From positions 4,452 through 68,451 of the forward strand of contig CAOMRW010000002.1 of the NCBI GenBank assembly GCA_948485625.1: a stretch of DNA of 64,000 bases, written 5' to 3'. How positions within the stretch are numbered: the stretch's first letter is position 1; the number at the start of each line of letters is the position of its first letter. Below, in pieces: positions 1-59,400 of the stretch. Made by a program: the position numbers and the translations under genes. The DNA comes from an uncultured Clostridia bacterium (GTDB lineage: Bacteria; Bacillota; Clostridia; TANB77; CAG-508). The notes below the pieces were generated by a model. The model was not told where the DNA came from. It saw only the letters and a list, made by a program, of their open reading frames with translations, and searched no databases.

Positions 1-3000
1 TCTACTGTTCCATCTGTTACAGTTGTTTCATATTCTACACTAAATGACATTTCTGGTGTATAAGAATCCATTTTTGTATTTTTAATATATTCTGAACCAC
101 CATCATATGCTTTATTAATCTCATTTTCTAATGTATTATATTTTATTTTTTCCATTTCAGCATCTATTTTTCTTCTAGTAGTCATATTATCTAAAGCATC
201 TGTTTTTCTAACGTCTATATTATCATCTCTATACCAATATTTATTATTTTGGTCTCTTTTTTCATCATATACAGTACCTTTGTAATATTGAACTTTATAA
301 GTCTTATCTCCCCATGTATATGTAACAATATAATCACCTGGTATGTATCCAACAAATTCAAAGTTTCCTTGCTCATCTGTTGTTGTTGTCATTTCAATTC
401 TTTCTTCATCATAACTACTATCATCTTTTCCAGTTTCACGTAGTCTTACTTCAACTCCAGCAATAGTAGATTCACCATTATCAAATATACCATTACCCAA
501 TCTTTCTTCTCCACTGTATACATTTTCATCTTTTCCAGTTGAGTCTACAAATACTGTTCCTACTAAAGCTCTTTCGTTCTTTAATTCTAATCTTAAAGAT
601 CTTGCTGCATCTGTATCATCCTCATATGTTTCAACTTGACCTGGTACCATATTTCCTGGTACTGAATCATTATCAACTACTGCTAATGTTTTATTTACAT
701 CATTATCTTTAAATGTTGTATAAGAATTAATTTCAGCAACATTATTTAATAAATCTCCGTTATTCAATATTGTTAAAATAGCTGGTCTATCTAATTTAAA
801 TTGTAAATAAATATATTTTGCTTCAGCTGGATTTACCATCATATTAGTATCTATAGTATATTTTGAATATTCTTCATTGTATTCAGTTTTTGAACTAAAT
901 CCTAAATCTCCTGTTATTTCAGATGTTGTATTATCAATATTAGTTCCTGCTTTTATTAATTCATATCTATTATCACAATAATTAACTATATTATTAATTC
1001 TTCCTAAAAATGTGCTTTCATTTTTTAGAGCTATTTTATATGTTACATATACTCTTAACTCATTATCTTTATGATTTGGTGCATCATATTCTGCATCTGC
1101 AGTATATATTGCTCTTTGATATGTACCTGTATTTTTTTGGAATTTTACACCTACATTCCAAGCTGATTCTTCATTTACACTACCGTCTTTATTAAATCTA
1201 ACAGCTCCATATTTATATACATGTGCTTTTCCATTTACTTCTACTTTTACATTATCTATATCTTGAGATAATGCATAATCTGCTTGATTTTTTTCAAATA
1301 GTCCTAGATTTACATATCTTATTTCTTCAGAAGTTGGTTTAAATCCACTATATAAATCATATCCAGCTTCATTTGTTCTAGCAAATACTTCACATCCTGT
1401 ATGGCTATTAATTGTACTAATATAATTCTCTGTATTGTTATAATTTACTTTAACTCCATTTATATCTAAGTTTTGATTACCAGTAGAATCTACGCTTGTA
1501 AATTTATCATCTAATACTTTTCTAGTAGAATCATCTATAGCCTTTGAACCTGTATTTTGTTCTAATTTTTTAGCAACTGATTGATATGTTATTCCACAAT
1601 ATTCAAATTCTACATAATATTCTCCAGCTTGTAATTTATCTAAATCAATATCAACAAATTGATATTCTCCGCCTTCAATTTCACTATATAATCCTAATTC
1701 TGAAGTTGTTGTTCTCATAATTTCATTACCATTTTTATCTTTCAAGTAAACTGGTATTCCATTAAATCCTTTTTCAAAATCAGCATCATATTGGTCATTT
1801 CTGACTGTTGTCTTTCCTTCATTAACATCTAGCCAAACATATCCTGATAACTTAACTTTATTTTGATGGTTAGTTATTTTTATATTTTCATTAATTTTTC
1901 CTACATTATACTCTTTTCCTATATCATATCCATAATATGGATTCTCTACTTCTATGGCTTTCAAAGAATTTTTAAATACTGTCTCTCCAGATATATTTTC
2001 TATTTTTATAGAACCATCCGCTTCTGTATAGAAAGTTTTTGCATTTTCAATATTATCTTCACTCCAACACAAGTCATTTCCTAAATATCTTTCTTCTATT
2101 CTCCATCTAGCCTCTGAATTATCAAATCTATATGTTTTTGCCTTAAACTTAAATCCAACACCTTTTAATGGTACTCTTTCATCTCTATCATCAACTTTTA
2201 CTAATCCTATGTCTGAACTTAAAGGAATATCATAGTCTCCTGAATTTTCACCTTTTGATGGTTTTGATATATCTTCTCCTGGTATAGCAAACATTAGGTT
2301 TTGTCTATCTTTAGCATGGAAGAACCATATTTTAGCTGTATATACTTTTACTTCTTCATCTGTTTCTGATGAGCTTGTATTTAACTTTATTTCATCAATT
2401 TCTTTAACTCCTGCTGTTTTCTTAACATCTACATAAAAAGGTGTTCCACTTAATATTTCAGATGCTTTAACTTCTCTAGCTTCAGTATCCCAATATTGAA
2501 TAAATCTAATATCTGAATCTGAAACTTCTTTTTCAGCACTTTTTACTATTATATTCTTTAAGATTCCTTCAAATTCCCATCTATATGGACCTGTTCTAAA
2601 ATACTCACCAGCATCCATTGTTGTTATATCTTCTTTATTTGTTTTATCTGTAATAACTAGTTCTTTTTGAGATTCATCCCCATCTATTGAAGCTTTATGA
2701 TTTCCAACTTCTGTTGCATATTTCTCTGCTTCAAACTCCATATCATAATAATTTCCTTCTACTTCATCTCTTGTATTTCCACTCCAACTATATCTTCCAT
2801 CTCCAAACAATGTTGTTGTCCAATCATTTACCTTTTTCCACAAAACTTTTTGTCCAACATCAGCAGTTACTCCACCATGTCCTCGACCTTTATTTAAAAT
2901 ATAGGCAATTTGTGCATTCATCTCACTATTAATTATTACTGGTTCTGAATCATTTGCATTATCATATACCTTTGCTTCTCTACCATTTATTTCTACATAA

Positions 3001-3233
3001 TTCCTTATATTAAATGTTGTTGTTTTAAGTTCTTTTCCTCTCTGTGTACAATATAAATTTCTTTTATGATATAAATCGTCAGATGATAAAGTAATAGTTT
3101 TACCAATATCTTCTTTTCCTTGTAATGTATCTAAATCTTTTGCAGAAAGTGCATTTACTATTCCACTAGCTAAAAAGATACTTAACATTAATACTGTTAT
3201 TGCATAAAATATAGCTTTATTTCTTAATTTCAT
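1..3233 (-). CDS. giant secreted surface protein, B-type (partial; C-terminus lies beyond window edge)
   Basis: Uninterrupted minus-strand frame from the window edge up to ATG 3233..3231, preceded by GGAGGG RBS (3240..3245, 6-nt spacer). N-terminal signal peptide MKLRNKAIFYAITVLMLSIFLASG. Repeated SdrD-B/Cna-B-like modules ending in G-x-Y-Y-V-x-F-E-Y (e.g. DLDKLQAGEYYVEFEYCG read from 1591..1650). Paralogous to residues 1383-2951 of the 53461..62316 ORF. Absent from the ORF track only because no stop lies inside the window. Confidence 0.75.
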   Translation of the reverse strand, partial: MKLRNKAIFYAITVLMLSIFLASGIVNALSAKDLDTLQGKEDIGKTITLSSDDLYHKRNLYCTQRGKELKTTTFNIRNYVEINGREAKVYDNANDSEPVIINSEMNAQIAYILNKGRGHGGVTADVGQKVLWKKVNDWTTTLFGDGRYSWSGNTRDEVEGNYYDMEFEAEKYATEVGNHKASIDGDESQKELVITDKTNKEDITTMDAGEYFRTGPYRWEFEGILKNIIVKSAEKEVSDSDIRFIQYWDTEAREVKASEILSGTPFYVDVKKTAGVKEIDEIKLNTSSSETDEEVKVYTAKIWFFHAKDRQNLMFAIPGEDISKPSKGENSGDYDIPLSSDIGLVKVDDRDERVPLKGVGFKFKAKTYRFDNSEARWRIEERYLGNDLCWSEDNIENAKTFYTEADGSIKIENISGETVFKNSLKAIEVENPYYGYDIGKEYNVGKINENIKITNHQNKVKLSGYVWLDVNEGKTTVRNDQYDADFEKGFNGIPVYLKDKNGNEIMRTTTSELGLYSEIEGGEYQFVDIDLDKLQAGEYYVEFEYCGITYQSVAKKLEQNTGSKAIDDSTRKVLDDKFTSVDSTGNQNLDINGVKVNYNNTENYISTINSHTGCEVFARTNEAGYDLYSGFKPTSEEIRYVNLGLFEKNQADYALSQDIDNVKVEVNGKAHVYKYGAVRFNKDGSVNEESAWNVGVKFQKNTGTYQRAIYTADAEYDAPNHKDNELRVYVTYKIALKNESTFLGRINNIVNYCDNRYELIKAGTNIDNTTSEITGDLGFSSKTEYNEEYSKYTIDTNMMVNPAEAKYIYLQFKLDRPAILTILNNGDLLNNVAEINSYTTFKDNDVNKTLAVVDNDSVPGNMVPGQVETYEDDTDAARSLRLELKNERALVGTVFVDSTGKDENVYSGEERLGNGIFDNGESTIAGVEVRLRETGKDDSSYDEERIEMTTTTDEQGNFEFVGYIPGDYIVTYTWGDKTYKVQYYKGTVYDEKRDQNNKYWYRDDNIDVRKTDALDNMTTRRKIDAEMEKIKYNTLENEINKAYDGGSEYIKNTKMDSYTPEMSFSVEYETTVTDGTV

Positions 3234-3249
3234 TCTTTTCCCTCCTTTC

Positions 3250-6200
3250 CTACATTAATCTTTTGTCTATAATTAATTTTTTTATTATAAATCCTGCTAT
3301 TCCAACCATTACAATTGTTGCAACAATTAAAGATACTGTCATAACAACTTGACCTGTTCTTATACTTATAATTAGGTCTGCTGCTCCCATATCGTTTTCA
3401 CCTTTTACCTTATTTCCTTCAGTTGAGTTTACATCAGTTAATCCTAATTCATTATATGAACTTGCTATTTCAGCTGTATTATTAATTAATCCTGTGTTAT
3501 TCTCTTTCATTTCTTTTATTACTGTTAAAGTAACCTCTCTACTTTCACCAGGTGCTATTTTCTCATTTGCAAGGCTTGTACAATATACATCTTTTCCAGA
3601 TTGATACCAGTCTTTATTTAATTCAGAATTAAACTTATAATCACTTGATAAATAATCTGCTATCTTCTTAACATATGCTGCCACATCACCCTTATTTGTT
3701 ACTTTTATTGTATATTCAACTACTATTATCGTAGAGTTAACTTGTTTTGCATCTATTTCTTGTTTTACTAATGTTGCATCTTTGTATGTATTTGTTACTG
3801 TCTTATTATTCTGTACTGTAACTTTACTTATATATTTATCTAATTGTAAATCATAATTTTTAGCAGTTACTAACCCAATATTGATATTTGATATATTATT
3901 ATCATTTATATTTATTATTTGTGTTGCTGCTACTTTACTCTCTTTTCCATCAATCTTTATAGTTTTTGTAATTACATTTGAATTCAAGTCATCAGAAATT
4001 CCTTCTTTTTCAAATATAGTTAATCCATATTTAGTATTATCATATTCAAATATAACTAAGTATTGACCTTTTACTACTTTATCAAAACTATAAAATCCTG
4101 TTGAACTTGTTGTTGTAGATAAAATGTTTCCATTTTTGTCTTTTACAAATTCATTTTTAGATGTATCAAGTAATTTCACTGTCATACCTTCTATTGTTTT
4201 TTCATTAGAATCTCTTTTTCCATCATCATTTTCATCTATCCAAGCAACACCTGAAATTATTTTATACTCTTCAGGTTTTGAAGTATCACCATTATTGCCA
4301 TTGTTTCCATTGTTTTCATTATTCTCATTATCTTCATCTCCAGTTGTTCCATCTCCACCATTATTTAAACCTTCTTCTGGTTGTAAAATATGTGTAATTT
4401 TTGCTTTAGAAATCACTGTAGAAAATATCTGTAATGAAGCCTCATCTATTATTTCAATTGACTTTGTGTTTCCTAATAATAAATTTACAACTACTTCAAT
4501 TTCATATTCAATAGTTTCTCCAACATTTAATGGATTGTGTTTCAATACTAATAATTTCTGATTTTTAGTATCATCAACTTTTAATGAATAGTCTTCTTCT
4601 GATAACTGTGTTCCATTTTTCATTACTTTTACTAATGAAACTTCATTTGAAATCCAGTTTCTTAGAGTTATAGCATTAGCAACTCTTTCCCCATTATTTC
4701 TAATAGTAATATTATATTTTATTCTATCTCCTGCTTTTACATATTTTCCACTATTTTCTGAATCCATATTCATACTTACTTGTAAATCAGACTGTGCTAT
4801 TACATTAACTTCATTTGAATTATATTTTTCATTATTAACTTCACAATTTGCTGTAATATATACTTCTTTTGAAGAAACATCATCAAATATCTCTACTGTT
4901 GTATAAATTACCAATTCAATAGTTTCACCTGGTTGAATTTCTGCTATTGTTATATTATTTGAATTTTTCTCTGTAATAATTCTGTCATTATAATCATAAT
5001 AAATCTCAAAAATATCTATAAAATCATTTGTATCTATTGTAGCTTTAACATTTTTTAATACTCTATCTGAATTGTTCTTAACATTTAAAACATATCTATA
5101 CTCAAATCCACTTTTAACAATATTACTAATAGCATCAATAGAAATCAATTGTAATTCTAATAGTCCATCTTTTACAGTTGTTTTAGTCTCATTTGAATTT
5201 TTAGTAACCTCCCCATATTGTGTTGTAACAGTATTAGCAATATCTTTTCCAGACATTCCTTTATTTACTTTTACTTCATAATATCTTGTTACTTTTTGTC
5301 CTTTTGGCAAATTATCTATATTAAATTCAACTTGTTTCTTATTAACATCTTCAAATTCTAAGTCATCTAAAGCAACTTCATTATTTAAAAAGTCTGTATT
5401 AACATATGTTGTACCATCAGGAACATTTGCTTTAACTTTTACATTTGATATATCTTCTGAACCCACATTAGCCACAACAACTGCATATCTTAATACTTCA
5501 TTTTCTCTTACTTCATTAGTTTCTTTTCTTGCAACCAATGTCTTCAATGTAGTCTCAAGAACTGTTCCTTTTGGAGTTCCCAATCTAATAGCCTTTGTAT
5601 TAACTTGTTCATCTATTGTCACGTTTTTATAGTATACTGTATATCCCTCTTCCGCTGTCTCATTATATTCAAGATTAGATGGTATAGTTATATCATATGA
5701 TATATTAATAGTTTCTAATAAATCTAACTCATCAATAACAACTAAATATTTTTTAACAAGTTTATTATCTTCTATACTATCAGTCCAATTATTATCTTTA
5801 TTAGATAAATCTTCTGTTGCCATTTCATTATTTGAATAATATACTTTTACTCTACTAGCATCTATATCAGATATTTGTAAGTTCCCAACTTCTATATCCA
5901 TATTGTTAACATCCATTGCTTCTTTTGTTGGAAATGCTCCTAATATTTTTACATCTGAAATTTTATTTTCTTTGTTATTTATTATTTCTTTTCTAATTGT
6001 AACACTCTTTGTATCTGTTGCAAGAGCTAACTCTCCTGCAAGTGTTCCTTCATTATTTACAACATCTATTCCATATTCTGAAATTTGATTTGTTGTTACA
6101 ACACCAGCATAAGAAACTATATTTATATCTTTGCTAACTGTTCCTTCATTTGAATTTCCTGTTACATTATTATTCACATATGTTAATTTAATTTGTTCTA

Positions 6201-8139
6201 CACTAGTTGGAATCTTTTTACTTGTCATTAAATTAGCATTTATTATAATTACTGCACCTTCTATAGCTTCTTCTTTATATTTAGTTTGTTCTCCATCTAA
6301 AACCATTTCAATAGTTCTACCATTTAAAACCGCTGATTTTATTACTAACTCATCCTCATAAAGTAATTTGATATAATTAACTTTTATATCTTGTATTTTC
6401 TCAGGCAATTCTAATCTTATAACTGGATTTTTAAATAATTGATTATTCTCTTCTCTAGAATTCAAAACAACTCTAAATTCAACATTATCATTAGATGTCA
6501 TTGCTGATAATTCTGTTCTATTAATTTGTAAATCTACTGATGTCTCTGTTTCTTTTAATTCAATGTTTGATTCAATAGTTCCTAATGAAACTTCATTATT
6601 ATCCTTAACATATGAAACAGCAGATTTCAAATTTATAGAATTTGAATCTTTAACTATATTTCTATCATTATCAATTATTGTCTTTGTATTCTGTATTTCT
6701 AATTTCCCTATTCTTTCAGACTCTACAAATCTAAATACAACAGTTTTTATATTTTCTGGATATGTAACAACTACAAATCCACTTTCATCTGATGCAGTAT
6801 CTTTATTTATTGTTGTTATAATATTTCCTGTTACAGCATCTAAAATATTTAATAATCCTTTTTCACCTAATAAATTATCTATATCAGATTTTTTAATTCT
6901 AGTAGTTCTATAATTTGCATTTAATGTACTTTCACCTATAGTTTGAATCTCTTCTCTAAGATTAATCTCATCTGCAACATTATTCAAATTAACATTTACT
7001 ATATTTTTATAAGTAATATCTCTTGAAATACCTGAATATAAGTTTCCTTTATAAATACTTGCTTCATTCTGATATGTATCTATAGTAACAATAGAGTCCT
7101 TTTCATTTTTATCTAATGTAATTTCATTAGAAGCTTTCATAACTGTATTACCCAAATCATAAAGCTCAATATTTGAACTTATGCTACTCTTTTCATCATT
7201 TATTTCTACATCTTTGTCTAGAACATATGTAATTATAAATTTATCTTCTCCATTTTTTCTCCAAGAAACTTTATTATTTTCATTAACATTTTCTATATTA
7301 ATAGAAATTACACCTGATTCATTATTATAATTCCAATCATTTTTTGATAGCATTTTACCATTTGTCATCAAAACATCATTTGAATTAACTAATACACTTT
7401 CAGGATATTTATCTAAAATTTTAGGAGCTTGAATATTAACTATAGTTTTTTCTATTGGAAACAAATTATCTTTCAATCCAGCTCTAACTTGTAATTGTAT
7501 AACTCTTTTATCTTCACCATTAAAATTAAGAATTTTATTAGTTATAATTTCTTGTGATAATATTATGCCATCATCAACATTATCATATGGACTAACTAAT
7601 CTCAAAGATATATTTCTATTAGAATTTATAGCAATATCTTTTTGTAAACTGTCTCTATAAATACCCTCTATAGAAACATCACTTTCCATATTAATAAAAT
7701 TCAAATCAAATTGCTCCTCTTTTAATAAGTCAATTCCTACTTCTATTTCTTTAGTTTCTCCAGCATTTATTTGATTTAAAACTATAACATTATTCTCTAT
7801 TCTACTTATTGACTCACTTAATACTTCTGGTTTAATTCTAAAATTAGCATTATTTAAAACTATATTTCCATTAAAATATCCCTCTTGTTTTACAGATATT
7901 TGAAAATATACTTTTAGATTACCATTATTTGTATAAGTATCTAACTCTGTAATCTTATTTTCTCTTTCATCCTTAAAATAAGCCATAAATTCTATATTTT
8001 TATGGTTTGTGTTCTTATTTACATTCATTGCATCAGCTGCATAAGATACCACATCAACACATAACAATAAAAAATTTGCCATTGTCAATGTCACAATTAA
8101 TAGCATTGATGTTATAACTTGTAAAATTCTTTGTTTCAT
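3250..8139 (-). CDS. giant secreted surface protein, A-type (1629 aa): DUF11-like repeats, SdrD-B/Cna-B-like module, C-terminal TM anchor
   Basis: Single 4.9-kb ORF with N-terminal signal peptide (MKQRILQVITSMLLIVTLTMANFLLL). SdrD-B-type module SGVAWIDENDDGKRD...GFYSFDKVVKGQYLVIFEYD. C-terminal DUF11-like domain (YDLQLDKYISK...EYTIKVTNKGDVAAYVKKIADYLSSDYKF...APGESREVTLTV). It ends IISIRTG + hydrophobic helix + KKLIIDKRLM, which resembles a sortase-type sorting signal without LPXTG. Confidence 0.8.
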   Translation of the reverse strand: MKQRILQVITSMLLIVTLTMANFLLLCVDVVSYAADAMNVNKNTNHKNIEFMAYFKDERENKITELDTYTNNGNLKVYFQISVKQEGYFNGNIVLNNANFRIKPEVLSESISRIENNVIVLNQINAGETKEIEVGIDLLKEEQFDLNFINMESDVSIEGIYRDSLQKDIAINSNRNISLRLVSPYDNVDDGIILSQEIITNKILNFNGEDKRVIQLQVRAGLKDNLFPIEKTIVNIQAPKILDKYPESVLVNSNDVLMTNGKMLSKNDWNYNNESGVISINIENVNENNKVSWRKNGEDKFIITYVLDKDVEINDEKSSISSNIELYDLGNTVMKASNEITLDKNEKDSIVTIDTYQNEASIYKGNLYSGISRDITYKNIVNVNLNNVADEINLREEIQTIGESTLNANYRTTRIKKSDIDNLLGEKGLLNILDAVTGNIITTINKDTASDESGFVVVTYPENIKTVVFRFVESERIGKLEIQNTKTIIDNDRNIVKDSNSINLKSAVSYVKDNNEVSLGTIESNIELKETETSVDLQINRTELSAMTSNDNVEFRVVLNSREENNQLFKNPVIRLELPEKIQDIKVNYIKLLYEDELVIKSAVLNGRTIEMVLDGEQTKYKEEAIEGAVIIINANLMTSKKIPTSVEQIKLTYVNNNVTGNSNEGTVSKDINIVSYAGVVTTNQISEYGIDVVNNEGTLAGELALATDTKSVTIRKEIINNKENKISDVKILGAFPTKEAMDVNNMDIEVGNLQISDIDASRVKVYYSNNEMATEDLSNKDNNWTDSIEDNKLVKKYLVVIDELDLLETINISYDITIPSNLEYNETAEEGYTVYYKNVTIDEQVNTKAIRLGTPKGTVLETTLKTLVARKETNEVRENEVLRYAVVVANVGSEDISNVKVKANVPDGTTYVNTDFLNNEVALDDLEFEDVNKKQVEFNIDNLPKGQKVTRYYEVKVNKGMSGKDIANTVTTQYGEVTKNSNETKTTVKDGLLELQLISIDAISNIVKSGFEYRYVLNVKNNSDRVLKNVKATIDTNDFIDIFEIYYDYNDRIITEKNSNNITIAEIQPGETIELVIYTTVEIFDDVSSKEVYITANCEVNNEKYNSNEVNVIAQSDLQVSMNMDSENSGKYVKAGDRIKYNITIRNNGERVANAITLRNWISNEVSLVKVMKNGTQLSEEDYSLKVDDTKNQKLLVLKHNPLNVGETIEYEIEVVVNLLLGNTKSIEIIDEASLQIFSTVISKAKITHILQPEEGLNNGGDGTTGDEDNENNENNGNNGNNGDTSKPEEYKIISGVAWIDENDDGKRDSNEKTIEGMTVKLLDTSKNEFVKDKNGNILSTTTSSTGFYSFDKVVKGQYLVIFEYDNTKYGLTIFEKEGISDDLNSNVITKTIKIDGKESKVAATQIININDNNISNINIGLVTAKNYDLQLDKYISKVTVQNNKTVTNTYKDATLVKQEIDAKQVNSTIIVVEYTIKVTNKGDVAAYVKKIADYLSSDYKFNSELNKDWYQSGKDVYCTSLANEKIAPGESREVTLTVIKEMKENNTGLINNTAEIASSYNELGLTDVNSTEGNKVKGENDMGAADLIISIRTGQVVMTVSLIVATIVMVGIAGFIIKKLIIDKRLM

Positions 8140-8592
8140 AATATTACCTCCTAAAATGGTTACTTTTCTTCTTATATAGAATATAAATAATAAATAAAAA
8201 TGTCAATAACATTAATTTACTGATATTTAAAGCCTTTACGGATGCTCATAAAAAATAATTATATCAATTTTATTAAATTTATATTACATTTTCATTTCAT
8301 AATTCATTTTACATAATCACCTATAATAAATTATACACTAAATACAGTCATTTTTCAATGATTTTTTACATCTTTATAGAAATTTCTTCACATTATTTTA
8401 TAAAAATCCGTAAACCAATCAAAAAGCTTCCTACATTTTAAAAAATCAAAAGATAAAAACAACTATTTTCGACAAAAAATGTCAAAAATAGTTGTCTTAC
8501 CATATAATATTTTAATTAATCAAATACTCAATAAAAAATTTTTATATTTTTAAATTACAAACTTAATTTGAAATCTCAAAGCAATTCATCTA

Positions 8593-9903
8593 CTAGTAAA
8601 GTGTGGCACGTGGACTAATGCTAATGTAGCTGTGAGAAGTAGTGGTGATGCCACGACAAGAAGCTGAATAGTCGGAACCATTAAGGTAGTAAACACCTCC
8701 CCTGTAAGCACAAGGATTAATGCTATCAAACATCCATCGCTCTAGTGTCCATTCAAATTCATTACCAGCCAAATCATAAATATTCATCTTATTAGTCTGC
8801 TCTGATGATCCTGTTGTTAATAATTGATAATAACTTGTATTACTTGAGGTTTGACTTGATGTTACATAGTTTTCTGTATCTTCATTAAATGGTTTCCATA
8901 TACTTGTTGGACTCTCTGGGTATACATTATACTTCCCTCTACTTAGTGTTAAACTACTATCAGTATAATTCCCCCATTCTTTACAATCTCCTTTTGTTAT
9001 TGCACTTCCTGCCTTTTCATCTATAAATTTACATGTTAAGTCCCATTGTATTCCAAATAATAAACTTGTTGTTTTATTTGTATCTGGTTTCATTCTATCT
9101 GCTAGTGTTTGAGCTTGACTACATGTTACATAATTATATGGTATTTGGTCTATTCGACTTACTGCCTCTCCTGTTATTCCACTTGACGCTGTTCTTGTTT
9201 TATTACTAGCTGTTGCAGTAGCATCACCTATTTCATATCTACTTATCCAAAATCCTCCATTTGAAAATACACTACTTAACATTTTTTCATAATTTTCTTT
9301 ATATTCATAATATGTTAATCCACATCCATTATTCAATTTCTTTTGCTCTTCTGTTAAATTTGTAGTTCTTTCATTTACTAATATCTCTCCATCTAAGGCA
9401 TGCCATTCATCTGCGAAACTACTAGTTCTATAATTTGTTGGAGTTGTTACATAATTTATTAAATCTGCTTTTATTGTATCATATTGCTTTGATTCTGTTG
9501 CAGTAAATATAGTCTTAGGCACTTCCACCCATGTCCATTCATTATCTTTACTATCTTTTATTACTATTCCTTTATTTGCATCTCCCTCTACAACTTCTTT
9601 TGTTCCATCTGGCATTGCACTTACTGGGTCTGTTATAGATGTATCTACATTTTTTATTTCTTCTCCTAAATTACTTCCTCCACTTAAATTATTTCCTAAA
9701 AATCCATTTATTGTATCTTCATATTCTTTTAATGTAGTATTTTCTCCTTCTTGAGCTTCTACTGATTTATTTTTTGCCTCTCCTGCTTTCTCAAATAATC
9801 CACTTCCTGTTAGACTTGCTATTGATATTCCTGCCAATATTAAAAGAATTATTATTGTTATTACTAGAGCAATTAGTGTTATTCCTTTGTTTTGTTCTTT
9901 CAT
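8593..9903 (-). CDS. membrane-anchored extracellular protein: pilin-like N-terminal signal anchor + FGE-sulfatase (SUMF1-like) domain
   Basis: N-terminus MKEQNKGITLIALVITIIILLILAGISIASLTGSG is a class-III/prepilin-like signal lacking Glu+5. C-terminal motifs GGFWISRYEI, IYDLAGNEFEWTLE and CAYRGGVYY match FGE-sulfatase family hallmarks (GFYMxKYEVT, DMSGNVWEWT, RGGSW). First gene of the cluster that continues with A1 and B1. Confidence 0.7.
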   Translation of the reverse strand: MKEQNKGITLIALVITIIILLILAGISIASLTGSGLFEKAGEAKNKSVEAQEGENTTLKEYEDTINGFLGNNLSGGSNLGEEIKNVDTSITDPVSAMPDGTKEVVEGDANKGIVIKDSKDNEWTWVEVPKTIFTATESKQYDTIKADLINYVTTPTNYRTSSFADEWHALDGEILVNERTTNLTEEQKKLNNGCGLTYYEYKENYEKMLSSVFSNGGFWISRYEIGDATATASNKTRTASSGITGEAVSRIDQIPYNYVTCSQAQTLADRMKPDTNKTTSLLFGIQWDLTCKFIDEKAGSAITKGDCKEWGNYTDSSLTLSRGKYNVYPESPTSIWKPFNEDTENYVTSSQTSSNTSYYQLLTTGSSEQTNKMNIYDLAGNEFEWTLERWMFDSINPCAYRGGVYYLNGSDYSASCRGITTTSHSYISISPRATLY

Positions 9904-10206
9904 ATTTTTATTATTTCCTCCTTTGTTTTTATATCCTCTTCTTTATTTAACATTATATTTTTTATTTATTTTTTACACAATAAAATAACAAATTTTAATT
10001 GTAAATAATTTTACATAAATTCTACTATCAAAACAATTCATCTCATATCCACAATACATAGAGTAGTAAAATTATAAATATATAATTTTTACAACTTATA
10101 TATATCACCAACCACTGTAACAAAATTCCCACAAAAACATATAATAAAATAATATATTCTACATATATCAAAACAAAAATAATATATTATACTAGAGGTG
10201 ATAAAA

Positions 10207-10656
10207 ATGAACAATATAAATATTGACGAAAACACAATGAACAACATCAAAAACATGGTTGATAATGGAAACATATCAGAAGCACTCTCAAACATATCTC
10301 CAGAAATGATACAAAACTTTACACAAATGCTATCAAATCAGCAAAATCAACCAAACCAAGCAAACAACAATTCTCAAGGAGAAACAACAACAAATAACTT
10401 CAATCAATCAAACGCAAACTCCACACCAAGCAACAATAACTTTGACTTTAGTAACATAGACATGAACACAATCATGAAAATGTCTTCTGTCCTAGGAAAA
10501 ATGAACACAACAAAAGACGACCCAAGAGCCAATCTACTAAACTCTCTAAAACCATATTTAAGAGATGGCAAAAAAGGAAAATTAGACAACTACATGAACT
10601 TATTAAACGTTGCAAAAATAGCAGACATAATGAAAGATAATAATAAAGGAGAATAA
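10207..10656 (+). CDS. hypothetical Asn/Gln-rich low-complexity protein
   Basis: ATG 10207 with RBS AGAGGTG 10194..10200 (track start 10198 is GTG). N/Q-rich composition. Stop overlaps the RBS of the next ORF (operon). Confidence 0.45.
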   Translation: MNNINIDENTMNNIKNMVDNGNISEALSNISPEMIQNFTQMLSNQQNQPNQANNNSQGETTTNNFNQSNANSTPSNNNFDFSNIDMNTIMKMSSVLGKMNTTKDDPRANLLNSLKPYLRDGKKGKLDNYMNLLNVAKIADIMKDNNKGE

Positions 10657-10661
10657 AAACA

Positions 10662-10985: not shown

Positions 10986-10987
10986 TA

Positions 10988-31154: not shown

Positions 31155-33234
31155 CTAATTCTCATCCAAAGGCCCAAACAATTCATCAAACTTAGCCTCT
31201 AACTCTTTTTGTAAATCATAAGAATCCTCTTCTTCTTGCTGTGGAAGTACTGGAGCATCATCTTCAAAATTTAAATCTAATATATTATCTACTGCCTTTT
31301 CTTCTTTTAAAGTTTTATCTTCAATACCTACTTTAGCTGTCACTTTATCTTCTACTTTTTCATTAATATTATCTTGTTTTTTCTCTTTGTTATTATCTTT
31401 TTTATCATCCTTATCAATGTCTTCAAATAAATCATCTAAAGACTCAATATCTAAATTATCTACTGCTTTTTCTCCTTTATCCTCAACAAAAGGATTATAA
31501 GGATTATATTTTCTCCAAGGTCCTCTATCAATTTCTCCTATGTCATTATGGCTAATCTCATATCTAGCAAGTTCTTTAACCATTGGATGTTTAAAATAAT
31601 AAAACTTATTTGCTTTAACAGGTTTAATACCTTTTTCATAAATAATACATAAGTCATTGTCCATTCTTCTCAATTCATCTGGAGTCATAAGAGCTCTAGC
31701 CATTACTTGATCTGACTTATTATATCCTTGTCTCCACATATGTTTATCTTTACTTACAGACCAATTATCTCTAGATATTGTCTTTTCTCCTAAGGCTTTT
31801 GAAAAGTACTCTACTGTTTTAAATGAGTTACTTCCTAAAAATACATGTGTATCACAGTTACCCATTATAGTTTCATAAGATTTCTCATAAACAGCTTCTA
31901 ATTGATCAATATTTTGTAAAATAACACTAAAAGATATTCCTCTACTTCTTGAAGTAGAAATCTTTTTATCGAAATCTGGTATTTTACCAATATTAGCAAA
32001 CTCATCTAATATAAAATATGTTCTTTCTTTTAATGCTCCACCATTTTTATCTGCAAAATCATATAATTGTTGTATCATTTGTGAAAAGAATATAGTAAGT
32101 AAAAAGTCATATGCTGTATGCGTATCAGACGAAATTACATATACTGCTGTTTTTTTGCTTCCTATTTCCTCAAAATTTATTGTATCAGTTGATGTCAATT
32201 CTGCAATTTCCTTTGAATCAAATTTACCAAGCTTTGATTGCAAAGAACTTAATATTGAGCCATATGTCTTCTCTGGAGCTATTTCAATTGATTTATAATA
32301 CATTCTTGCTGGATGGTCATATGGTAATTGATTTATCAAATCTGAAAGTAAGTTACTACCTCCATTTTTATTCGCAGCTCTTACAAGTTCTGCACAACTT
32401 GCCAAGTTCTGTTCTTCTTCTGGTCTTGTTGCTATTAAATAATAAATTAAAGCTTTTAATAACATTTCTGCCATATCATCCCAATATGGGTCTGAACCAC
32501 TCTCAGTCTTTTGTCCTTTTACAACTGTATTTGCAATAACATCTACATCCAATTCAGATGAAATATGCATTAATGGATTGTATCCATCACTATATTGTGG
32601 TCTAACTAAATTTAAAACTTTTATTTCATAGCCATGTTCTTTCAAATATCCTGCAGTTCTATCGTAAAGTTCACCCTTTGGATCTGTAAATATATAAGAA
32701 CCTAAACATTGATATGCATTAGGAATTGAATATGATGCAGATTTACCAGAACCTGAACCGTCCAACTACTAATACATTTACATTTCCTCTTTTATCAAGT
32801 GGTAAATAATTGTCCTCTGCTAAAATAATACCTTTATTTTTACTTAATATTTGATATTGCTCTCCTCTTTGACTCCAATCACTTGAACCATGCTCTATAT
32901 CTGTAAATTGATTTTTAGGAGCTGATTTCGCAAATCCTATAAAAAATACTACTAAATAAACTATTGTAAATCCTAGTAAAAATGATATAAAATCATGTGT
33001 TACTCCATTTGTAAATATTCCAGCAAAAGTCCCAAATGGATTTGACATATTAGAAACTATTTTTTCCATAAATATTTCTAAAGAAATCCCTCCATCTACC
33101 TTTGCCTGAAATGTAGTATATGAAAATGGCGCAACAAATACTATGACTAATAATAGCCATAGTATTGAACATATTATAAAACTTTTTTTATTTTTTCTTA
33201 TTGCACCCTCTATTTTGTAGTTCATATATTTCAC
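31155..33234 (-). pseudogene. type IV secretion coupling protein (VirD4/TraG/TraD family), interrupted by a frameshift near 32745..32765
   Basis: ORF 32743..33234 holds the N-terminal TM helices plus HGSSDWS and ...NVNVLVVG. ORF 31155..32765 begins in another frame with SGSGKSASYSIPN...IFTDPKGEL. Together they rebuild the Walker A (VLVVG|SGSGKS) of a single T4CP of about 690 aa. Confidence 0.7.
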
Positions 33235-34691: not shown

Positions 34692-35561
34692 TTACTCTCC
34701 CCTTGGATTAAAACTTGACATTTCCTTTAATTTTTCAAACATCTCTTGTTCATCCAATTCCAAGTTTTTAGGAACCATTATCTTAACATCTGCTATTAAA
34801 TCTCCTCTACCACCTTTTCCATCTTTATAACCTTTATTAGGTATTTTTACTTTTTCACCGCTCTGTATTCCTTGTGGTATATAAACTTTAGTTTCACCAT
34901 CAATAGTTTTTATATTAACTCTTGTTCCTAAAGCAGCCTCCCATGGTGTAAGTTTCAAATCTGTACATAAATCACATCCAAATAATTTAAATACTCTATT
35001 ATTTTCTATATCTATTTTTATAAATAAATCTCCATTTTTTCCACCATTACTTCCAGCTTTCCCTTGTCCAATTAATCTTATTTTTTCTCCATTTCTAATA
35101 CCCTCTGGAATCTTTACTGAAAATGTTTTCATTTTTCCTTCTACAGTTCTTAAAGAAATTTTCTTTTCTAGACCATAAAAAGCATCTTCCAAACTTACCT
35201 TTATCTCTGTTTCTACATTTTCTCCTTTTATCGGGTTTTTTTGTTTTTTTACTTTATCTCTATCTATATTTTCTACATTTCCTAAAAACATATCAAAAAT
35301 ATTTCTTCCTTTAATATTTTGATAGTTCTTTACATTATTTTTTGAATTCCAAATCCTATCATATTTTCTTTTAGAAGCTGGAACAGATAAAGTTCTATAT
35401 GCTTCATTTATATCTTTTATTCTTTCTTCTGCTAATAAATCTCCAACATTTAAGTCTGGATGATATTTTTTAGCTGCTAATCTATATGCACTTTTTATTT
35501 CATCAATTGAAACTCTACTAGTCTCTAATCCCAACAATTTATAATAATCTTTATATTTCAT
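34692..35561 (-). CDS. J-domain protein, DnaJ/CbpA-like without zinc finger
   Basis: J domain DYYKLLGL...KYHPD. DnaJ C-terminal beta-sandwich domains. No CxxCxGxG repeats. Confidence 0.8.
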   Translation of the reverse strand: MKYKDYYKLLGLETSRVSIDEIKSAYRLAAKKYHPDLNVGDLLAEERIKDINEAYRTLSVPASKRKYDRIWNSKNNVKNYQNIKGRNIFDMFLGNVENIDRDKVKKQKNPIKGENVETEIKVSLEDAFYGLEKKISLRTVEGKMKTFSVKIPEGIRNGEKIRLIGQGKAGSNGGKNGDLFIKIDIENNRVFKLFGCDLCTDLKLTPWEAALGTRVNIKTIDGETKVYIPQGIQSGEKVKIPNKGYKDGKGGRGDLIADVKIMVPKNLELDEQEMFEKLKEMSSFNPRGE

Positions 35562-48000: not shown

Positions 48001-49125
48001 ATGAAAAAAGTTTTAATATTTTATGCCTCATATGGTGGGGGACATTTAAATGCTGCAAAATCAATAAAAGAATATATAGATAAAAATCACCATGATTTTG
48101 AGACAGAACTAATAGATTGTATGAAATATATAAATAAACCAATAGAAAAAATAACAACTGCTGCATACAGAGAAATGGCTAAAAAATTACCATGGGCATG
48201 GGGCAAAATATATTCTGACTCTCAAAAAGGACCATTAGCACACATTACTTCAAGATCAAATATGATATTTGCAATAAAGCTTTTAAAATTATTAAGAGAA
48301 AAACAACCAGATATAATAATTTCAACTCATCCATTTGGAAGTCAAATGTGTAGCTATTTAAAAAGAAAAGATAAAATAAATGCAAAAATAGCAACAATAA
48401 TGACAGACTTTTCTCCACATGACCAATGGCTTGTAGGACATGAACATACAGACTTTTTCTTTGTGGCACATGACAAAATGAAAAATTATTTAATTTCAAA
48501 AAATATACCTGAAAATAAAATATTTCCAACAGGAATACCTATATCGTCAAGATTTTTAGAATATTACAATAGGAAAGAAATTTTATCAGAATTTAATTTA
48601 GAAGAAAATAAAAAAAATATACTATTTTTTGGCGGAGGAGAATTTGGTCTAGGAAAATCTAGAACTATTCAAATTTTTGAAGATTTAGTGAAAAACTTTA
48701 ATAACATACAAATAATTGCAATTGCAGGAAAAAACCAAAAAATGAAATCTCACTTCGAAAATATAGTTAAAGAATACCATAAAGAAAACTCCACAAAAAT
48801 ATTAGAATACACTAATAAAGTACCTGAACTAATGTCAATTTCAGACTTAGTAATTTCAAAACCTGGAGGACTAACAACCTCAGAAAGCCTAGCATCAGAA
48901 TTACCAATGATAATAATAAATCCTATCCCAGGTCAAGAAGAAGAAAATGCTGAATTTTTAGAAAGTAAGGGAACAGGAATATGGATTAAGAAAAATGACT
49001 CATGCTATGAAATATTCAAAGATTTACTTTATAATCCACAAAAACTACAAAAAATGAAAGAAAACACAAAAACACTAGCAAAAAAACACTCTACTGAAGA
49101 CATTTGCAAAATAACTTTATCTTAG
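48001..49125 (+). CDS. ugtP: glycosyltransferase family 28, processive diacylglycerol glucosyltransferase UgtP/MGDG-synthase-like
   Basis: MGDG_synth N-domain (MKKVLIF...GGGH..AAKSI) plus Glyco_tran_28_C. Confidence 0.75.
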   Translation: MKKVLIFYASYGGGHLNAAKSIKEYIDKNHHDFETELIDCMKYINKPIEKITTAAYREMAKKLPWAWGKIYSDSQKGPLAHITSRSNMIFAIKLLKLLREKQPDIIISTHPFGSQMCSYLKRKDKINAKIATIMTDFSPHDQWLVGHEHTDFFFVAHDKMKNYLISKNIPENKIFPTGIPISSRFLEYYNRKEILSEFNLEENKKNILFFGGGEFGLGKSRTIQIFEDLVKNFNNIQIIAIAGKNQKMKSHFENIVKEYHKENSTKILEYTNKVPELMSISDLVISKPGGLTTSESLASELPMIIINPIPGQEEENAEFLESKGTGIWIKKNDSCYEIFKDLLYNPQKLQKMKENTKTLAKKHSTEDICKITLS

Positions 49126-53460: not shown

Positions 53461-56400
53461 TTAGTCTAATAATTTTTTCTTAATTAACACTATTCCACAT
53501 GATAAAATTACTAAACTTCCTAATCCAACTAAAACATAAATAATTATATTCTCTGCTCCTGTTGGAGGTACTATTACTAATTTTGCATCATGAGGTGTAT
53601 ATGGTTCATCTGGTGGCACATTTGGGTCTGGGTCTGTTCCTGGACTTGGCTTTGGAATCTCTGTGTCATTTATATATCTATTATATCTTCCATAATAACT
53701 ATTATCACACTCGTCATTACTACTGTTTTTATCTGTTGCATTTCTTACATTAAAGTTTCCTGGTGTCGCTAATTCCCATCCTTTATTTTCAACCATTTCT
53801 CCATAGAATCTACCTACTGAGTTTGATACTTCTAGTAATTCAATATAATTGTCAAATACTTGGTCATTATTATTTAAGTCTGTTAATAATTTTTTAGCTG
53901 ATAAATTCATTCTTGTGTACTCATTTGGTGCAAGTTCTTTTTTCTCAAGATTTTTTACAACTATATTATTTCTGTTTTTTATTGCATTATATACATCTGG
54001 TGAAATATCTATTCCTGTAAGTTTATTATCTGCTAACATTGCTACATCTCCTTGTAATTGCCATCTAGTTTCATTAGTATTTGATGGATTATAATATGTA
54101 AATTCACTACTATTATTAATATCATATGTTATTGATAATTTTTCATCTACATAGTCTACAATAGAGTGTAATGCTATTTTTACAGGCGTTAATCCATTTG
54201 TATCTCCATATCTATAATATTTTGTATCATCATAATCAAGCTCTGATCTATTGTCAATTCTTATATCATATGTCATATCTAATGTTGCACCTTCAATAAT
54301 TTCATTATCTACTTCTATTTTTACAGGTCCAAAATCTGGATAAGTTACATAATTTATGTCATCTTTTCTAGGATCTCCTTCTATTAACACTTGTTTATTT
54401 GCTAATACTACTGCTATTCTACTTATCTCTTTATTTACTTGTATACTTTGTCTTGGTCTTTCTGCTATACCAAAATTAATCTTATATACTCTTGAACCCT
54501 CACTATATTCATTAGGCGTTGTTTGTTGTCTATGGTCTTCTATAGCAAAATCCATGATTCCTGTATAAGCTAACATATTTTTATATTCATTACTTTCAGA
54601 ATTTTCATAATCAGTCTTTGTTGCATAATTTATAGTACTTAGATAATTATTAATGTTGTTTCTTATTTCTTTATCATCTACTGCTGAAGAATCTAATGAA
54701 TTCTCATTTCTTCTATACCAGTACCATATATCATCTGGATTTGATTCATTTTCATGGATTAATCCACTAGCTAATAAATTTTGACGTCCATTTGGTGTTT
54801 CTTTTTTATTGTTTTCAATTAATACTTTATATTTACTTTCATTAACAATTGTAGATTTATAATCTTGAGTTGTAATTGGTATATCTCCCATTTTTGTTTG
54901 TATATTAATCACTTTATTAGCATCATTTGTATCAGTATAATCATATTTTCCATATTGATATTGTATATAATATTCTCCTGGAACTAATCCTTGAATTTTA
55001 TATTCACCATTACTATCAGTCAAATATTGTGCATTTTTTATTACAACATTTCCTTCTTCATCTAAATTATACAATTGTGTAGTTGTATCATCATCATAGT
55101 TCTGTACTTTAACTTCAACATTTTCTATTTTCTTTTCGCCATCATCATAAACACTATTTCCTTTTCTTTCTTGATTTGTTTTAAGTTCAGCACTTGTACT
55201 ATCTTCAAATACTAGACCAGAAATTATTTTTGATTCTTTTCTTGTGAATTTTAAATCTGGTGCTACATCTGTATCATCTTCATATGTATCTGATGAATTA
55301 TAATCTACATTTCCTGGAGCTGAATCTTCATCAATTCCACCATATTTACTTCCATCTTTAGCATATGTTGTATATGAATTTATTTCAGTAAGATTTCTAT
55401 TTATATTCAATTCTTGTCCATCTTTCAAATTAGCTAAACTTACAATTGTATCTGTATTTACTTCATATTTTAAGTATATCATTATACTTTCAGCAGGATT
55501 TATATTCTCTAATTCATTAGTCTGCCATATATTAGTTCCATTAGAATTTCCTACATTAGTCCAATTTACATTTACTCTTGCTCCACTATTATTAGTATAA
55601 TATGACTCTTCAACCTTTTCAAATCTTGTATCAGCATAATTATTTAAACTTACTCTTGAATATAAACTTCCACTTTCATTTTTTACTGCTATTTTATATG
55701 TTACAAATACTCTTAATCTATTCTCATTACTTGGATCTTCTTTTGTATATGCTATATATGAATCATATATTCCTCTTGTATAACTACAATTTTTATAATT
55801 TCCACTAGCATTTTTTACTCCAACAGAGAATCCATCTAAAGCTGCATCATATCCTTTATTTATATCAACATCTGGCACTCCATTATTCATATATGGATTT
55901 CTTTGTTTATATTCATATGTATGTGTATATCCATTAATTGCTAGTTGTATATCATCTATATCTGTTGCAATCGCTAAATCTGGTTGTGCTCTTCTATAAA
56001 TACCTAAATTTATATTCCTAATTGTTTTTACACCTGTACTCCATCTTATTGCATACCCTGCTGTCCCTGTATCCGCTAACATTTTTGCTTTGCTTACATC
56101 TGTACTTCCTGTTAGTGATTCCGCTGTATACCCTGTATTTTGTACTAATTCTGAATTCCAATTTTCTCCACTAGTATAGTTCAATTCTACACCTGTTCCT
56201 GTTTTTCCTTCTGTTCTTGTAGATGTTTTTGTATTTCCTCCTGATATACTTGAATAATTATCATTTAACGTTGTTCTATCTACTGATTTTTCATCTGCCT
56301 TTGAACCATTATCTCTTGTTAAATTTTTAATTACACTTTGATATTTTAATCCATTATATTCAAACTCTACTGAATATTGAGATAATTCACTTATATTTAT

Positions 56401-59400
56401 TGTATACTGACTTCCTGTTCCATTTGCATTATATGTTCCTTTTGCTGGGAATACATATTCACCATTTGCATTTGTTCTTCTTTGAGCAATTATTGTTCCA
56501 TTTTTCTTCAAACTTACTAATATGTTTCCTATTCTTTTATCTATTCCATTATTATCATATAACTCATTTCTTGTTGCAGTCTTACTTGTTTGTATATCCT
56601 CCCATACATATCCCTCTAAATCAACTCGTAATTGTGCATTTGGGAATTGTGTATTTGTATTTGTTCCATCAGCATTATTTTGTAATGTAACTGAAAGTAT
56701 ATTTGAACTAACATCATAATACTGAGACATATCACTTGGTATTTCAATCTCTTTTATATGATATGTATAATATTGTGGTATATTATTTAATCTAAATTGA
56801 CCATTATTATCTGTTACAAATACTTTCGCATTATTTTCATCAGTTGGCGTAAATGTCGATGGTGCACTTCCATTCTCTCTGTAATCACTACCTATAAATC
56901 TTGGTGTTCCATCTGTTGGAGTCGTATAATAAATCTTAAACTTAACATTTCTAAATACAATATCTTCTAATTGATGTAATGTATTTCCTGTCATATTATC
57001 CTGTTTCTTACTTTGGTCTACTTTCTCTACAATTAAGTTTCCATATTTTTTATTTGTAAAAGTAATATTAGATGTTTTACCAGAAACTATATTTACTGTT
57101 GTACTTGCTACTTGTAAAGACATATTATATCCATTAGGTGCTCCTACTTCCTGAACATAATAATCACCTGGCAAAAGATTTGTAACTTTTATTGTTGAAG
57201 CCTCCATTGTAAAAGTTTGGTCATATCCATTAGGACCTGTAATTCTTATTTGTGCTCCTGTTAATCCTGCATTTGTATCAGCATCTTTCTTAGTTATTTC
57301 TATGTTTCCTCCTAACATAGTATTAATTCCTTTAGTATCTGTTGCAGCTCCATATACTTCTTCTGGGTTCATAGTAATAAGAGTCTGATATCCATTTTTA
57401 GGATTACCTGCTGTACATTTACATCTATAATAAAGATTCACTCTTGCATCAATATATAACAACACTTTCTCAGTATTTAACTGTAAGTCGAAATATAATT
57501 GTCCTATAGAACTTTCAGACACATAAATATATATATTATCTCCATTATTTATATTTCTGACTGTATTTCCATTTATATCACATATATTGGCATTAACTTC
57601 TTTCCCATCTACCTTACAACTAACTATTTCTCCAGTTACATTTGAAGTAGTAGTTGTATAATTAACTTTATATGGCCCTACAATACTATATGTAGATGTA
57701 TTTTTTACCATTTTAGCATTACTATTATCTATAGCATCTAATGTTATACCTGCAGAACCTGTTGAACTAACATTGCTAAATAAATTATGATAGTATTCTC
57801 TCATTGTACCATTATAATTAAATGGTATACTACAAGGACCTCTTTCTACCCAAGCCATTACTTCTTGTTCACTAGTTCCTACTGAATATTCTTGTTTCCA
57901 ATAGTATAAATCACATCCATTTTTACTTAAATGCTCTCCTGGATCTAAACACCAATATGGTTGACCTTGATTAACAGTAGACCATGTGCCACTTTGATAA
58001 TGTTCTCCTAATGAAAACCATTTTATTATAAAATGTCCATTTTCTTCTACAGTATCTCCATTATTAGGACAATCTGTTCCATCTAAATGTTGATAATGAC
58101 GTTGAAAAGCAATAACTGATACTGATTTTATAAAAATTGTTGAAATTGCCAAAATTATAATACATATCATAAAAATATATCTTTTCTTTTTATTTTTTAT
58201 TATAACTGCAATAATTAGCATTGCAACTAATCCTATTATTCCATATATAAGATATGTAACAATTCCTGTCTTTACAGAAATAATCACTTCTGCCTTTGAA
58301 TAATCATCTTCTGTTTGACTTCTATTTCCTGCTACTGAATCAATATCTTTTAAATTTTTTGTATTAACTAATTCACTTATTTCTGCCTCATTCACTATTC
58401 TACCAATATTATTTTGTGACAATCTCTTTGATAATACTAATGTTAATTCCTTACTTTCCCCTGGCTGTACCTTTACATTAGATAAAGTCGTATTTTTTAA
58501 ATCTCCACTTGAATTTCTAATCCATCCTTTATTTAGTTCATTACTAAATGTCAATTCACTTGGTAAATAATCTACAATTTCCTTTATATATCCTTCTACT
58601 TCTCCTTCATTTGTAATTATAATCTTATATTCTATTAACACATCACTACTATCTAATTGTTTTGCAGGTATCTCTACTTTTGCCAATTTTGAATTATTAT
58701 ACTCTGTTACTTTTGTTCCACTATTATTATTTACTGTTATTTTACTTACATATTTATCTAATCTAAAATCAAATGTTGGATTCAATATAAGTCCTAAATC
58801 TATATTATTTAAATCTTTATTATCCACTTTAAGTATATCTGTTATTCCAACTTCTTTTTCGATTCCATCTATTGAAACTATTTTATTTATTGCATCTGAA
58901 TTTAATGAATCAGTTACACCATTTCTTTGATATTTGGTTATACTATATCTATTTGTATCATATTCAAATAATACAAGATAATTACCTTGTTCTATATCTT
59001 CAAATTTATACTTTCCATCATTGCCAGTTAGAGTTTTTACAATATTATTATTTTTATCTACTACAATAGAATTTGTATCTGAATCAAATAATTTTACTGT
59101 AACACCTCCTAATAATTCTTCTTTCTCATCCCTCTTTCCATCTCTATTTTGGTCTATCCAAACAATCCCACTTATATTATAGGCTTTATTTTCTTCTGAG
59201 CCATTTGGATTATCTGGTTCTTCAGGATTTACAGGTTTATCTGGATTATCTGGTTCTTCTGGATCTTCATAGTCCACTGGTAAAATAGTGTTCTTTATGC
59301 TATTTGATATCTTTGTTTCTATATTATCTCCATATACTATTGCTGTATTCTCTGCTTCCATAATCTCATCAACTGGTTCAACATATGCAAAAATCTTTAT

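Follow-up and report, generated by a model that had tools for sequence, protein, structure and literature searches.

A predicted operon for two giant fibrillar surface proteins, one with a putative thioester tip, in uncultured gut Clostridia

Organization and conservation of the A1-B1 locus

We analysed a 64-kb stretch of DNA (64,000 nucleotides, hereafter the window) from an uncultured Clostridia bacterium, focusing on three minus-strand genes at its beginning, P1, A1 and B1, which an earlier reading of the sequence (the original prediction) had described as one surface module. Translation bore out all three open reading frames (ORFs). A1 (8139..3250) encodes a fibrillar surface protein of 1629 aa, and B1 (3233..<1) an apparent TIE-type adhesin. 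The window holds 1077 of the 1365 aa of B1 (1..3233); the full length was read from an identical public contig, in which a 76-aa ORF and then spoIIE lie downstream of B1. P1 (9903..8593) encodes a stand-alone surface protein of 436 aa with a pilin-like leader and a head of the formylglycine-generating enzyme (FGE)/C-type-lectin fold, and we place it outside the adhesin unit. An independent assembly was 100% identical across window positions 1-8867, so the adjacency of P1 and A1 is real.

Transcriptional units were predicted from the intergenic sequences. A1 and B1 are separated by a 16-nt spacer (3234..3249), one nucleotide shorter than first reported, which holds the strong ribosome-binding site AAGGAGGG ahead of the B1 ATG, and a sequence scan of this gap found no terminator-like site. 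The gap between P1 and A1, given earlier as 450 bp, measures 453 bp. In this gap, an intrinsic-terminator-like hairpin on the minus strand (8456..8498), comprising 19 bp and a T-run, lies 95-137 nt downstream of the P1 stop codon and is predicted to end the P1 transcript. It folds with an energy of −24.6 kcal/mol (z −7.7), and none of 200 shuffled sequences folded equally well. Between the hairpin and A1, a promoter-like region on the same strand (8178..8358) contains TTGAAA-17-TATAAT (11/12 matches) and TTGACA-17-TATTCT (10/12 matches), which were identified by a consensus scan only and, in the AT-rich DNA here, show no enrichment over shuffles. Terminator-like hairpins are also present downstream of B1. 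As the spacer of 16 nt carries a ribosome-binding site, promoter-like sites lie upstream, and terminators lie before and after the two genes, A1 and B1 most likely make up a bicistronic operon that encodes two giant fibrillar surface proteins, judging from these sequence features.

To find relatives, species-representative genomes were scanned with an alignment of the B family. At least 414 were found and 80 loci were kept, all of them from metagenome-assembled genomes (MAGs) of uncultured gut Clostridia, such as Clostridium sp. CAG:575 and 28_17. A precedes B in essentially all of the 80 loci, and the gap between them has a median of 20 nt over 99 pairs, although protein identities within the clade fall to 31%. 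The ORFs are about 1600-1660 aa for A and about 1300-1480 aa for B. A single pair was seen in 25 loci, two successive pairs (ABAB) in 24, a pair plus a fused pair in 16, and a fused pair alone in two. In total, 18/80 loci contain A and B fused in a single ORF. The syntenic order is mreCD-PBP2-minC, two small ORFs, A, B, an optional second A-B pair, and spoIIE, and the minC to spoIIE synteny around the pair was found in 65 species-level genomes. The A-B pair belongs to the syntenic core of this clade of uncultured gut Clostridia. The kept order, the short gap and the fusions support the original prediction insofar as it regarded A and B as a dedicated, co-expressed pair of surface-fibre proteins.

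The search for other A/B pairs also yielded a fused paralogous pair in the window itself, A2-B2 (53461..62316, minus strand), a single ORF of 2951 aa. It comprises, in order, an A-like part, S-V-K-T-G, a transmembrane (TM) segment, KKKR, a signal-peptide-like TM segment, a B-like part, V-P-P-T-G, a TM segment, and KKK. Pfam detected SpaA four times, together with SdrD_B and DUF11. This topology would keep both large parts outside the cell. Because fusion has recurred independently, a functional partnership of A and B is suggested. A2-B2 lies about 45 kb from A1-B1, whereas in most relatives the second pair directly follows the first. It is flanked by tRNA-Arg(CCT) (53298-53373) and an AAA_14/DUF4143 ATPase gene (62853-63824), and this position between tRNA and ATPase genes suggests a rearrangement.

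The two small ORFs of the syntenic order (10198-10656 and 10662-10985, both on the plus strand) are N/Q- or Y/N-rich, of low complexity, and have no family match. They are divergent from A and lie directly upstream of it in 65/80 loci, at a median distance of 266 nt. A look for a conserved third gene turned up these two ORFs only. We treated them as part of the synteny and not of the system; their conservation may simply reflect synteny. In one related locus (L046, 14250-16844), transposase fragments and a frameshifted FGE-like pilin-leader gene separate the first B from the second A, indicating that the intergenic slots of the A-B locus accept insertions.

Domain architecture and sorting signals of B and A

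B1 opens with a signal peptide and a TED-like tip, continues with a SpaA/CnaB-type domain and SdrD_B domains, and ends in the motif I-P-S-T-G, a TM segment, and KK. In A1, a signal peptide precedes about 870 aa of N-terminal sequence, after which come CLIPPER/DUF11-type domains, SdrD_B (aa 1298-1396), DUF11 (aa 1463-1564), and finally the motif S-I-R-T-G with a TM segment and basic tail behind it. Much of this had been foreseen in the original prediction. The N-terminal hydrophobic segments expected of signal peptides were found in both proteins, the motif GxY[YL]VxFEY was read directly in both translations, and a profile check placed the predicted families above the Pfam cut-offs. SdrD_B scored 48.3 bits in A1 (E 1.3e-12) and 43.1 bits in two stretches of B1 (E 5e-11; cut-off 29.7 for both), and DUF11, a family now renamed CLIPPER, scored 56.6 bits in three stretches of A1 (E 3.8e-15; cut-off 24.6). 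NCBIfam likewise found a DUF11-type repeat in A1. CLIPPER and SdrD_B have been described as isopeptide stalk families (10.1101/2025.04.25.650565).

The putative class II thioester domain (TED) of B1 is encoded at 2229..3131 on the minus strand (aa about 35-335). TEDs are defined by the motifs [YFL]-C-Φ-ζ, TQxxΦW, and Φ-Q-ζ-Φ-Φ, the Cys and Gln of which form the bond, and in class II domains these two residues are about 170-205 residues or more apart (PMC6194298). B1 holds all three motifs in the right order. Cys62 (3048..3050) is located in LYCTQ, for which the family consensus is YC[IV]QH; it is invariant in sets of 25 and 19 sequences and at least 90% conserved in a set of 72. The second motif reads GQKVLW (aa 128-132), with G replacing the T of TQxxΦW, and W132 is at least 90% conserved in the 72 sequences. 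Gln311 (2301..2303) is located in RQNLM (family xQNLI), is invariant in the same 72 sequences, and is 249 residues from Cys62. A structure model of the tip places the Cys on a strand, QxxxW in a helix (99-116) and the Gln in a hairpin, with a beta-sandwich between, and this model appears closest to BaTIE of Bacillus anthracis. No family recurred more often in the 72 tips than Pfam TED (PF08341), which matched six of them weakly (best E 9.6e-5); in the smaller set it was found in 2/19. B1 thus probably carries a thioester-bearing tip able to bond covalently to a target.

An exhaustive search with the first 460 residues of B1 detected only 56 related clusters among 1.84 billion representatives; proteins of 1350-1630 aa make up most of these, and B proteins are annotated no further than "hypothetical protein". 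A word-indexed protein search with the tip gave no scored match even though B1 itself is in the collection, so this result is not evidence of absence. Against PDB sequences, neither phmmer nor profile searches with the tip gave a match. The tip of B2 aligned with the profile of B1-type tips only weakly and partially (hhalign probability 35%, E 4e-4), through its GPY and YQTLI segments. Below the tip, a SpaA/CnaB-type pilin-like isopeptide domain (1869..2201, minus strand; aa about 345-455) was assigned from a profile that, over residues 327-437, matched the PDB entries 4oq1 (E 1.2e-13), 9lty, 3phs, EbpB, and SpaA. Pfam SpaA was detected in 10/19 members of the B family.

BaTIE (BasC/BA5258; PDB 6FWV, 6FWY; PMC6194298) is a class II TED protein of the TIE type, and resembles B in its N-terminal TED motifs with an inserted beta-sandwich, its CnaB-type isopeptide stalk domains, and the LPXTG-like sorting signal that follows them. 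However, B is much longer (1365 aa, compared with about 520 residues in the solved BaTIE chains), has extra SdrD_B and CLIPPER-like modules, ends in T/I/V-P-x-T-G, and scores below the Pfam TED threshold. B is also always encoded directly 3' of a 1600-aa partner gene and is sometimes fused to that partner.

The C-terminal motif of B is [TIV]P[NASP]TG across the clade, and reads IPSTG in B1 and VPPTG in B2. The sorting signal of B2 passes the LPXTG_anchor model TIGR01167 (18.7, cut-off 15.9). The motif abuts the last Ig-like domain, with no wall-spanning linker, as in pilins. Cpa (Spy0125), found at the tip of the Streptococcus pyogenes FCT pilus, is likewise a TED adhesin and has the same VPPTG as B2; this motif is accepted by a class B sortase, which joins Cpa to another subunit (PMC3019223). 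As first noted, the 64-kb window contains no sortase gene. Among the 80 loci we found a single sortase ORF, in L020 (Pfam Sortase, 6e-14), 3 kb from B, and on this basis the clade encodes sortases. The earlier suggestion that assembly or anchoring factors are encoded elsewhere is supported.

A ends differently. The proline-less S-I-R-T-G of A1 (3352..3366, minus strand) is directly N-terminal to the TM segment (aa 1601-1619), which is followed by a KK..K.R tail. Across the 80 loci the motif is S[IV][RK]TG (SIRTG in 42, SIKTG in 20), without Pro and without a match to TIGR01167. The last ~210 residues of A are nevertheless homologous to the last ~280 of B (E 1.7e-8). The proline-less NVQTG is not cleaved by SrtB of C. 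difficile, and by analogy A is most likely not a sortase substrate but held in the membrane by its TM helix. No relative of the N-terminal ~870 aa of A was detected by phmmer and profile searches of PDB sequences or by Pfam. A has 86 homologues, and the named ones are all "hypothetical protein" of Clostridia.

Tandem Ig-like, isopeptide-capable families are also found in the CLIPPER/SdrD_B stalks of Acinetobacter silvestris B9T28_05395 (PDB 9IFR) and S. aureus SdrD. Unlike these adhesins, A has no recognisable adhesive tip, an 870-aa N-terminus with no relatives detected outside the clade, and an anchor motif without proline. A also differs from the small FCT pilins in its 1600 aa, its TM anchor, and its lack of a pilin motif; YPK[NDG] has no conserved occurrence in the A or B families. 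A sortase, a chaperone-like SipA protein, and a major pilin that polymerises are all encoded within the FCT locus, whereas none of these was found beside A/B.

Models of A and B function

On balance, and with moderate confidence only, we interpret the locus as two independent things, namely an A1-B1 operon for a TIE-type B protein and its partner stalk A, and an unrelated neighbour, P1. A1 and B1 would be made from one transcript and exported via Sec. B would display its class II thioester domain (Cys62-Gln311) atop a stalk of SpaA/CnaB, SdrD_B, and CLIPPER-like domains. A sortase encoded elsewhere would cleave B at [TIV]PxTG and link it covalently to the wall or to its partner. The partner would be A, a second giant stalk anchored in the membrane through its TM segment, whose C-terminal module shares its origin with that of B and whose sorting motif (S-I-R/K-T-G) would have lost the proline. 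The pairing, domains, motifs, conservation and fusions are observed directly, while the thioester chemistry, the processing of B by a sortase, the retention of A in the membrane and any contact between the two proteins are inferences.

Several observations weigh against this interpretation. B1 itself has no Pfam TED match at E ≤1, and the profile of 72 tips matches no solved TED by sequence. The sorting signal of B1 scores 14.7 with TIGR01167, slightly under the cut-off of 15.9, and a sortase gene is near the operon in only one of the 80 loci. The conserved TG in the A motif suggests that some enzyme may process A as well, which makes its retention in the membrane less certain. A pilin-like gene lies directly upstream of A in three loci (L076, L078, and L046), which would be compatible with a loose association of such genes with the operon.

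A possible but unlikely alternative is that A and B form a sortase-assembled two-subunit fibre, that is, a minimal heterodimeric pilus in which a class B-like sortase cuts B at [TIV]PxT|G and joins its Thr to a lysine of the membrane-anchored A, so that the thioester tip stands atop the A stalk. The similarity of the B motif to VPPTG of Cpa, a substrate of the class B sortase Spy0129, the absence of a wall-spanning linker between this motif and the last Ig-like domain, and the stalk domains, which are nearest to pilin domains, are in line with such a fibre, and the strict 1:1 pairing with recurrent gene fusions argues for a physical partnership. However, a YPKN-type pilin motif is present in neither protein, no pilus sortase or SipA-like gene was found beside the operon, and nothing points to an acceptor lysine.

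It is doubtful that A and B are separate adhesins linked only by co-expression, with A in the membrane, B on the wall, and no interdependence. Each protein has its own signal peptide and C-terminal anchor, and tandem adhesin genes are common in Firmicutes. This explanation does not agree with the invariant order and spacing over a deep clade of divergent proteins, the repeated independent fusions to one ORF, or the consistently complementary C-terminal motifs of A and B.

In a more speculative reading, which we consider rather improbable, A and B would be a two-part covalent-adhesion organelle, clade-wide and vertically inherited in an uncultured family of low-GC gut Clostridia. A distant class B-type sortase would move the thioester-tipped B onto the membrane-anchored A, giving a heterodimeric fibre without a pilin motif or a sortase at the locus. 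The A motif would then derive from a sorting signal, be deliberately non-cleavable, and keep the base in the membrane.

Fibrillar adhesins with CLIPPER/SdrD_B stalks and TIE proteins are already known kinds of protein. Unusual here are the obligatory A-then-B pairing with recurrent fusion, the combination of cleavable-looking and proline-less signals, and the 870-aa head of A. It is also unusual that the A-B operon is a syntenic core locus over a deep gut-commensal clade, where a variable accessory island would be more expected. To our knowledge, TIE adhesins are the only bacterial adhesins that bond covalently to their targets, and almost all of those studied come from pathogens. In B we find a very divergent candidate TED adhesin as a core gene of an uncultured gut commensal clade. 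The A-B pair is a testable candidate for the attachment of these gut Clostridia to mucus, host, or partner cells, and the motifs of A and B, a natural pairing of a cleavable with a non-cleavable sorting signal, could serve studies of sortase specificity.

P1 and the remaining genes of the window

P1 consists of a pilin-like leader and helix (aa 1-69) and a head (aa about 80-436). The original prediction had given it an FGE domain and a pilin-like anchor. Neither is significant in Pfam, as FGE-sulfatase (PF03781) scored 14.6 bits (E 0.026; cut-off 23.3) and N_methyl 15.4 bits (cut-off 21.2). A family profile built from 50 sequences, however, matched geopilin over its first 54 residues (E 2.4e-4) and SUMF2 over its last 60 (E 6.5e-3). 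In the AlphaFold2 model (pLDDT 81), a long N-terminal helix was observed, and the Foldseek matches, which were weak (best E 2.5e-3), were mostly FGE/C-type-lectin folds (CarF, Mtd, FGE, TvpA, TaqVP, PorK, PvdO, and EgtB). The modelled head is of the FGE/C-type-lectin fold, a label that holds at the profile and fold level only.

P1 shares its fold class and a GN-x-x-EW...RGG signature with FGE/SUMF2, Mtd, and TvpA, and differs from them in its fused pilin-like leader. The Cu-binding Cys pair of human FGE is C336/C341. In the P1 family, R401-G402-G403 is followed by the consensus xYxxxGSxxPASxR, which has no conserved Cys; the pair is therefore missing, as it also is in inactive SUMF2 and in ligand-binding Mtd-type proteins. 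We rejected P1 as a true FGE enzyme on account of the sub-threshold Pfam score and the missing Cys pair. We also rejected it as the target of a diversity-generating retroelement; its 3' end has no template-like repeat, no YxDD motif occurs in window ORFs of more than 250 aa, and neither template repeat nor reverse transcriptase was found in the window. Without these cysteines, the head probably serves in ligand binding rather than catalysis, and the earlier proposal that an FGE-like protein modifies the adhesins is unlikely to be right.

The leader of P1 resembles those of type IV pilins and pseudopilins in being short and basic, ending in Gly, and continuing into a hydrophobic helix of ~20 aa and a long alpha-1 helix. 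Gly at −1 and Ile at +1 are present, but position +5 is Ala (ITLIA) and not the Glu of type IV pilins. Pilus machinery was seen beside no examined copy, and no prepilin peptidase or assembly ATPase/platform gene was seen within the 64-kb window.

P1 has more than 7000 homologues, including one that shares 88% identity with it. A paralogue with 64% identity adjoins mraZ-rsmH-ftsL in the MAG GCA_950096955.1, which also carries an identical A1-B1, and further homologues are single copies amid housekeeping genes with no adhesin near. P1 is missing upstream of A in about 76/80 loci. In 65/80 loci the slot contains only the two small divergent ORFs, which here lie beyond P1, and P1 is therefore taken as a lineage-specific insertion. 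A sensitive tblastn search found pilin-leader genes in 10/80 loci, and they were directly upstream of A in L076, L078, and L046 only; that of L046 is the frameshifted FGE-like gene, which precedes the second A. An FGE-like head is near A/B in 1/80 loci. Pilin-leader genes occur roughly once per 20-60 kb, and because they are so frequent the few adjacencies with A are close to the chance expectation. P1, which is probably transcribed on its own, belongs to a very large and dispersed group of surface proteins that have a pilin-like leader in common and carry interchangeable binding heads.

It is highly improbable that the three genes form one module, as first proposed, in which the pilin-anchored FGE-domain protein modifies A and B or serves as a lectin-like accessory. 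In two independent assemblies P1 lies directly ahead of A1 in the same orientation, which fits such a module, as do the pilin-leader genes in the same slot of L076 and L078 and the frameshifted one of L046. Against it stand the strong terminator between P1 and A1, the slot that lacks P1 in 65 loci, the rarity of FGE-like heads near A/B, and the paralogues and homologues of P1 scattered amid housekeeping genes. Moreover, there are three pilin-leader genes in 64 kb, so the few adjacencies observed are close to what chance would produce, the A2-B2 copy has no P1, and the FGE assignment itself lacks the Cys pair and Pfam significance.

The three pilin-leader genes of the window (8593-9903, minus; 41911-42996, minus; 37684-38808, plus) share a near-identical leader, GITLIALVITIIxLLxLAGISIASL..GSGLFEKAxE, and have unrelated heads. 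That of P1 is FGE-like, that of 41911-42996 has no known match, and that of 37684-38808 has weak similarity to F5/8-type-C. In related genomes, the same leader is joined to BspA-LRR, fn3, or GLUG heads. These proteins look like a large, unannotated, modular surface-protein family of these Clostridia, and P1 brings to light its pilin leader with swappable binding heads. Pilin-leader genes adjoin cell-division and cell-wall clusters, namely minC (window 8593-11620) and murF-ddl (window 39231-42996), and likewise mraZ-rsmH-ftsL in L003 (10001-13274) and minD-minE-rodA in L086 (10001-13452). This could be coincidence.

The window has a GC content of ~27% and contains radC-mreBCD-PBP2-minC, pcrA, prfA, murF-ddl, ypeB, and dnaX-recR. 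The DNA is chromosomal and comes from a spore-forming Clostridia bacterium; a plasmid or phage origin was ruled out by this gene context and by the trivial-only megablast matches of window positions 1-25000. The original prediction also held that no chaperone or glycosyltransferase gene was present, and here it was mistaken. A DnaJ chaperone gene (34692..35561) and a glycosyltransferase gene of the MGDG-synthase type (48001..49125) were found, and both look like housekeeping genes unrelated to the adhesins.

Three small ORFs that match no family follow a gene for a type IV secretion system coupling protein (31155..32765, minus strand; T4SS-DNA_transf/TraG-D_C, E 1e-76), and the region 31155-34117 (minus strand) may be the remnant of an integrative conjugative element. 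It is very improbable, despite this coupling-protein gene, that A-B serves a mobile element in mating or aggregation in the manner of the pLS20 plasmid's class II TED adhesin, which is reported to be required for efficient conjugation in B. subtilis (PMC8092201), since A1-B1 lies about 23 kb from the coupling-protein gene within the conserved chromosomal minC-spoIIE synteny of 65 species-level genomes and has no plasmid or phage matches.

The lowest GC content of the window (18%) was found at 28001-30000, mostly within a 658-aa ORF (27475-29451). This ORF has an N-terminal AAA_27 domain (SbcC-like), and a metallophosphoesterase gene (SbcD-like) adjoins it.

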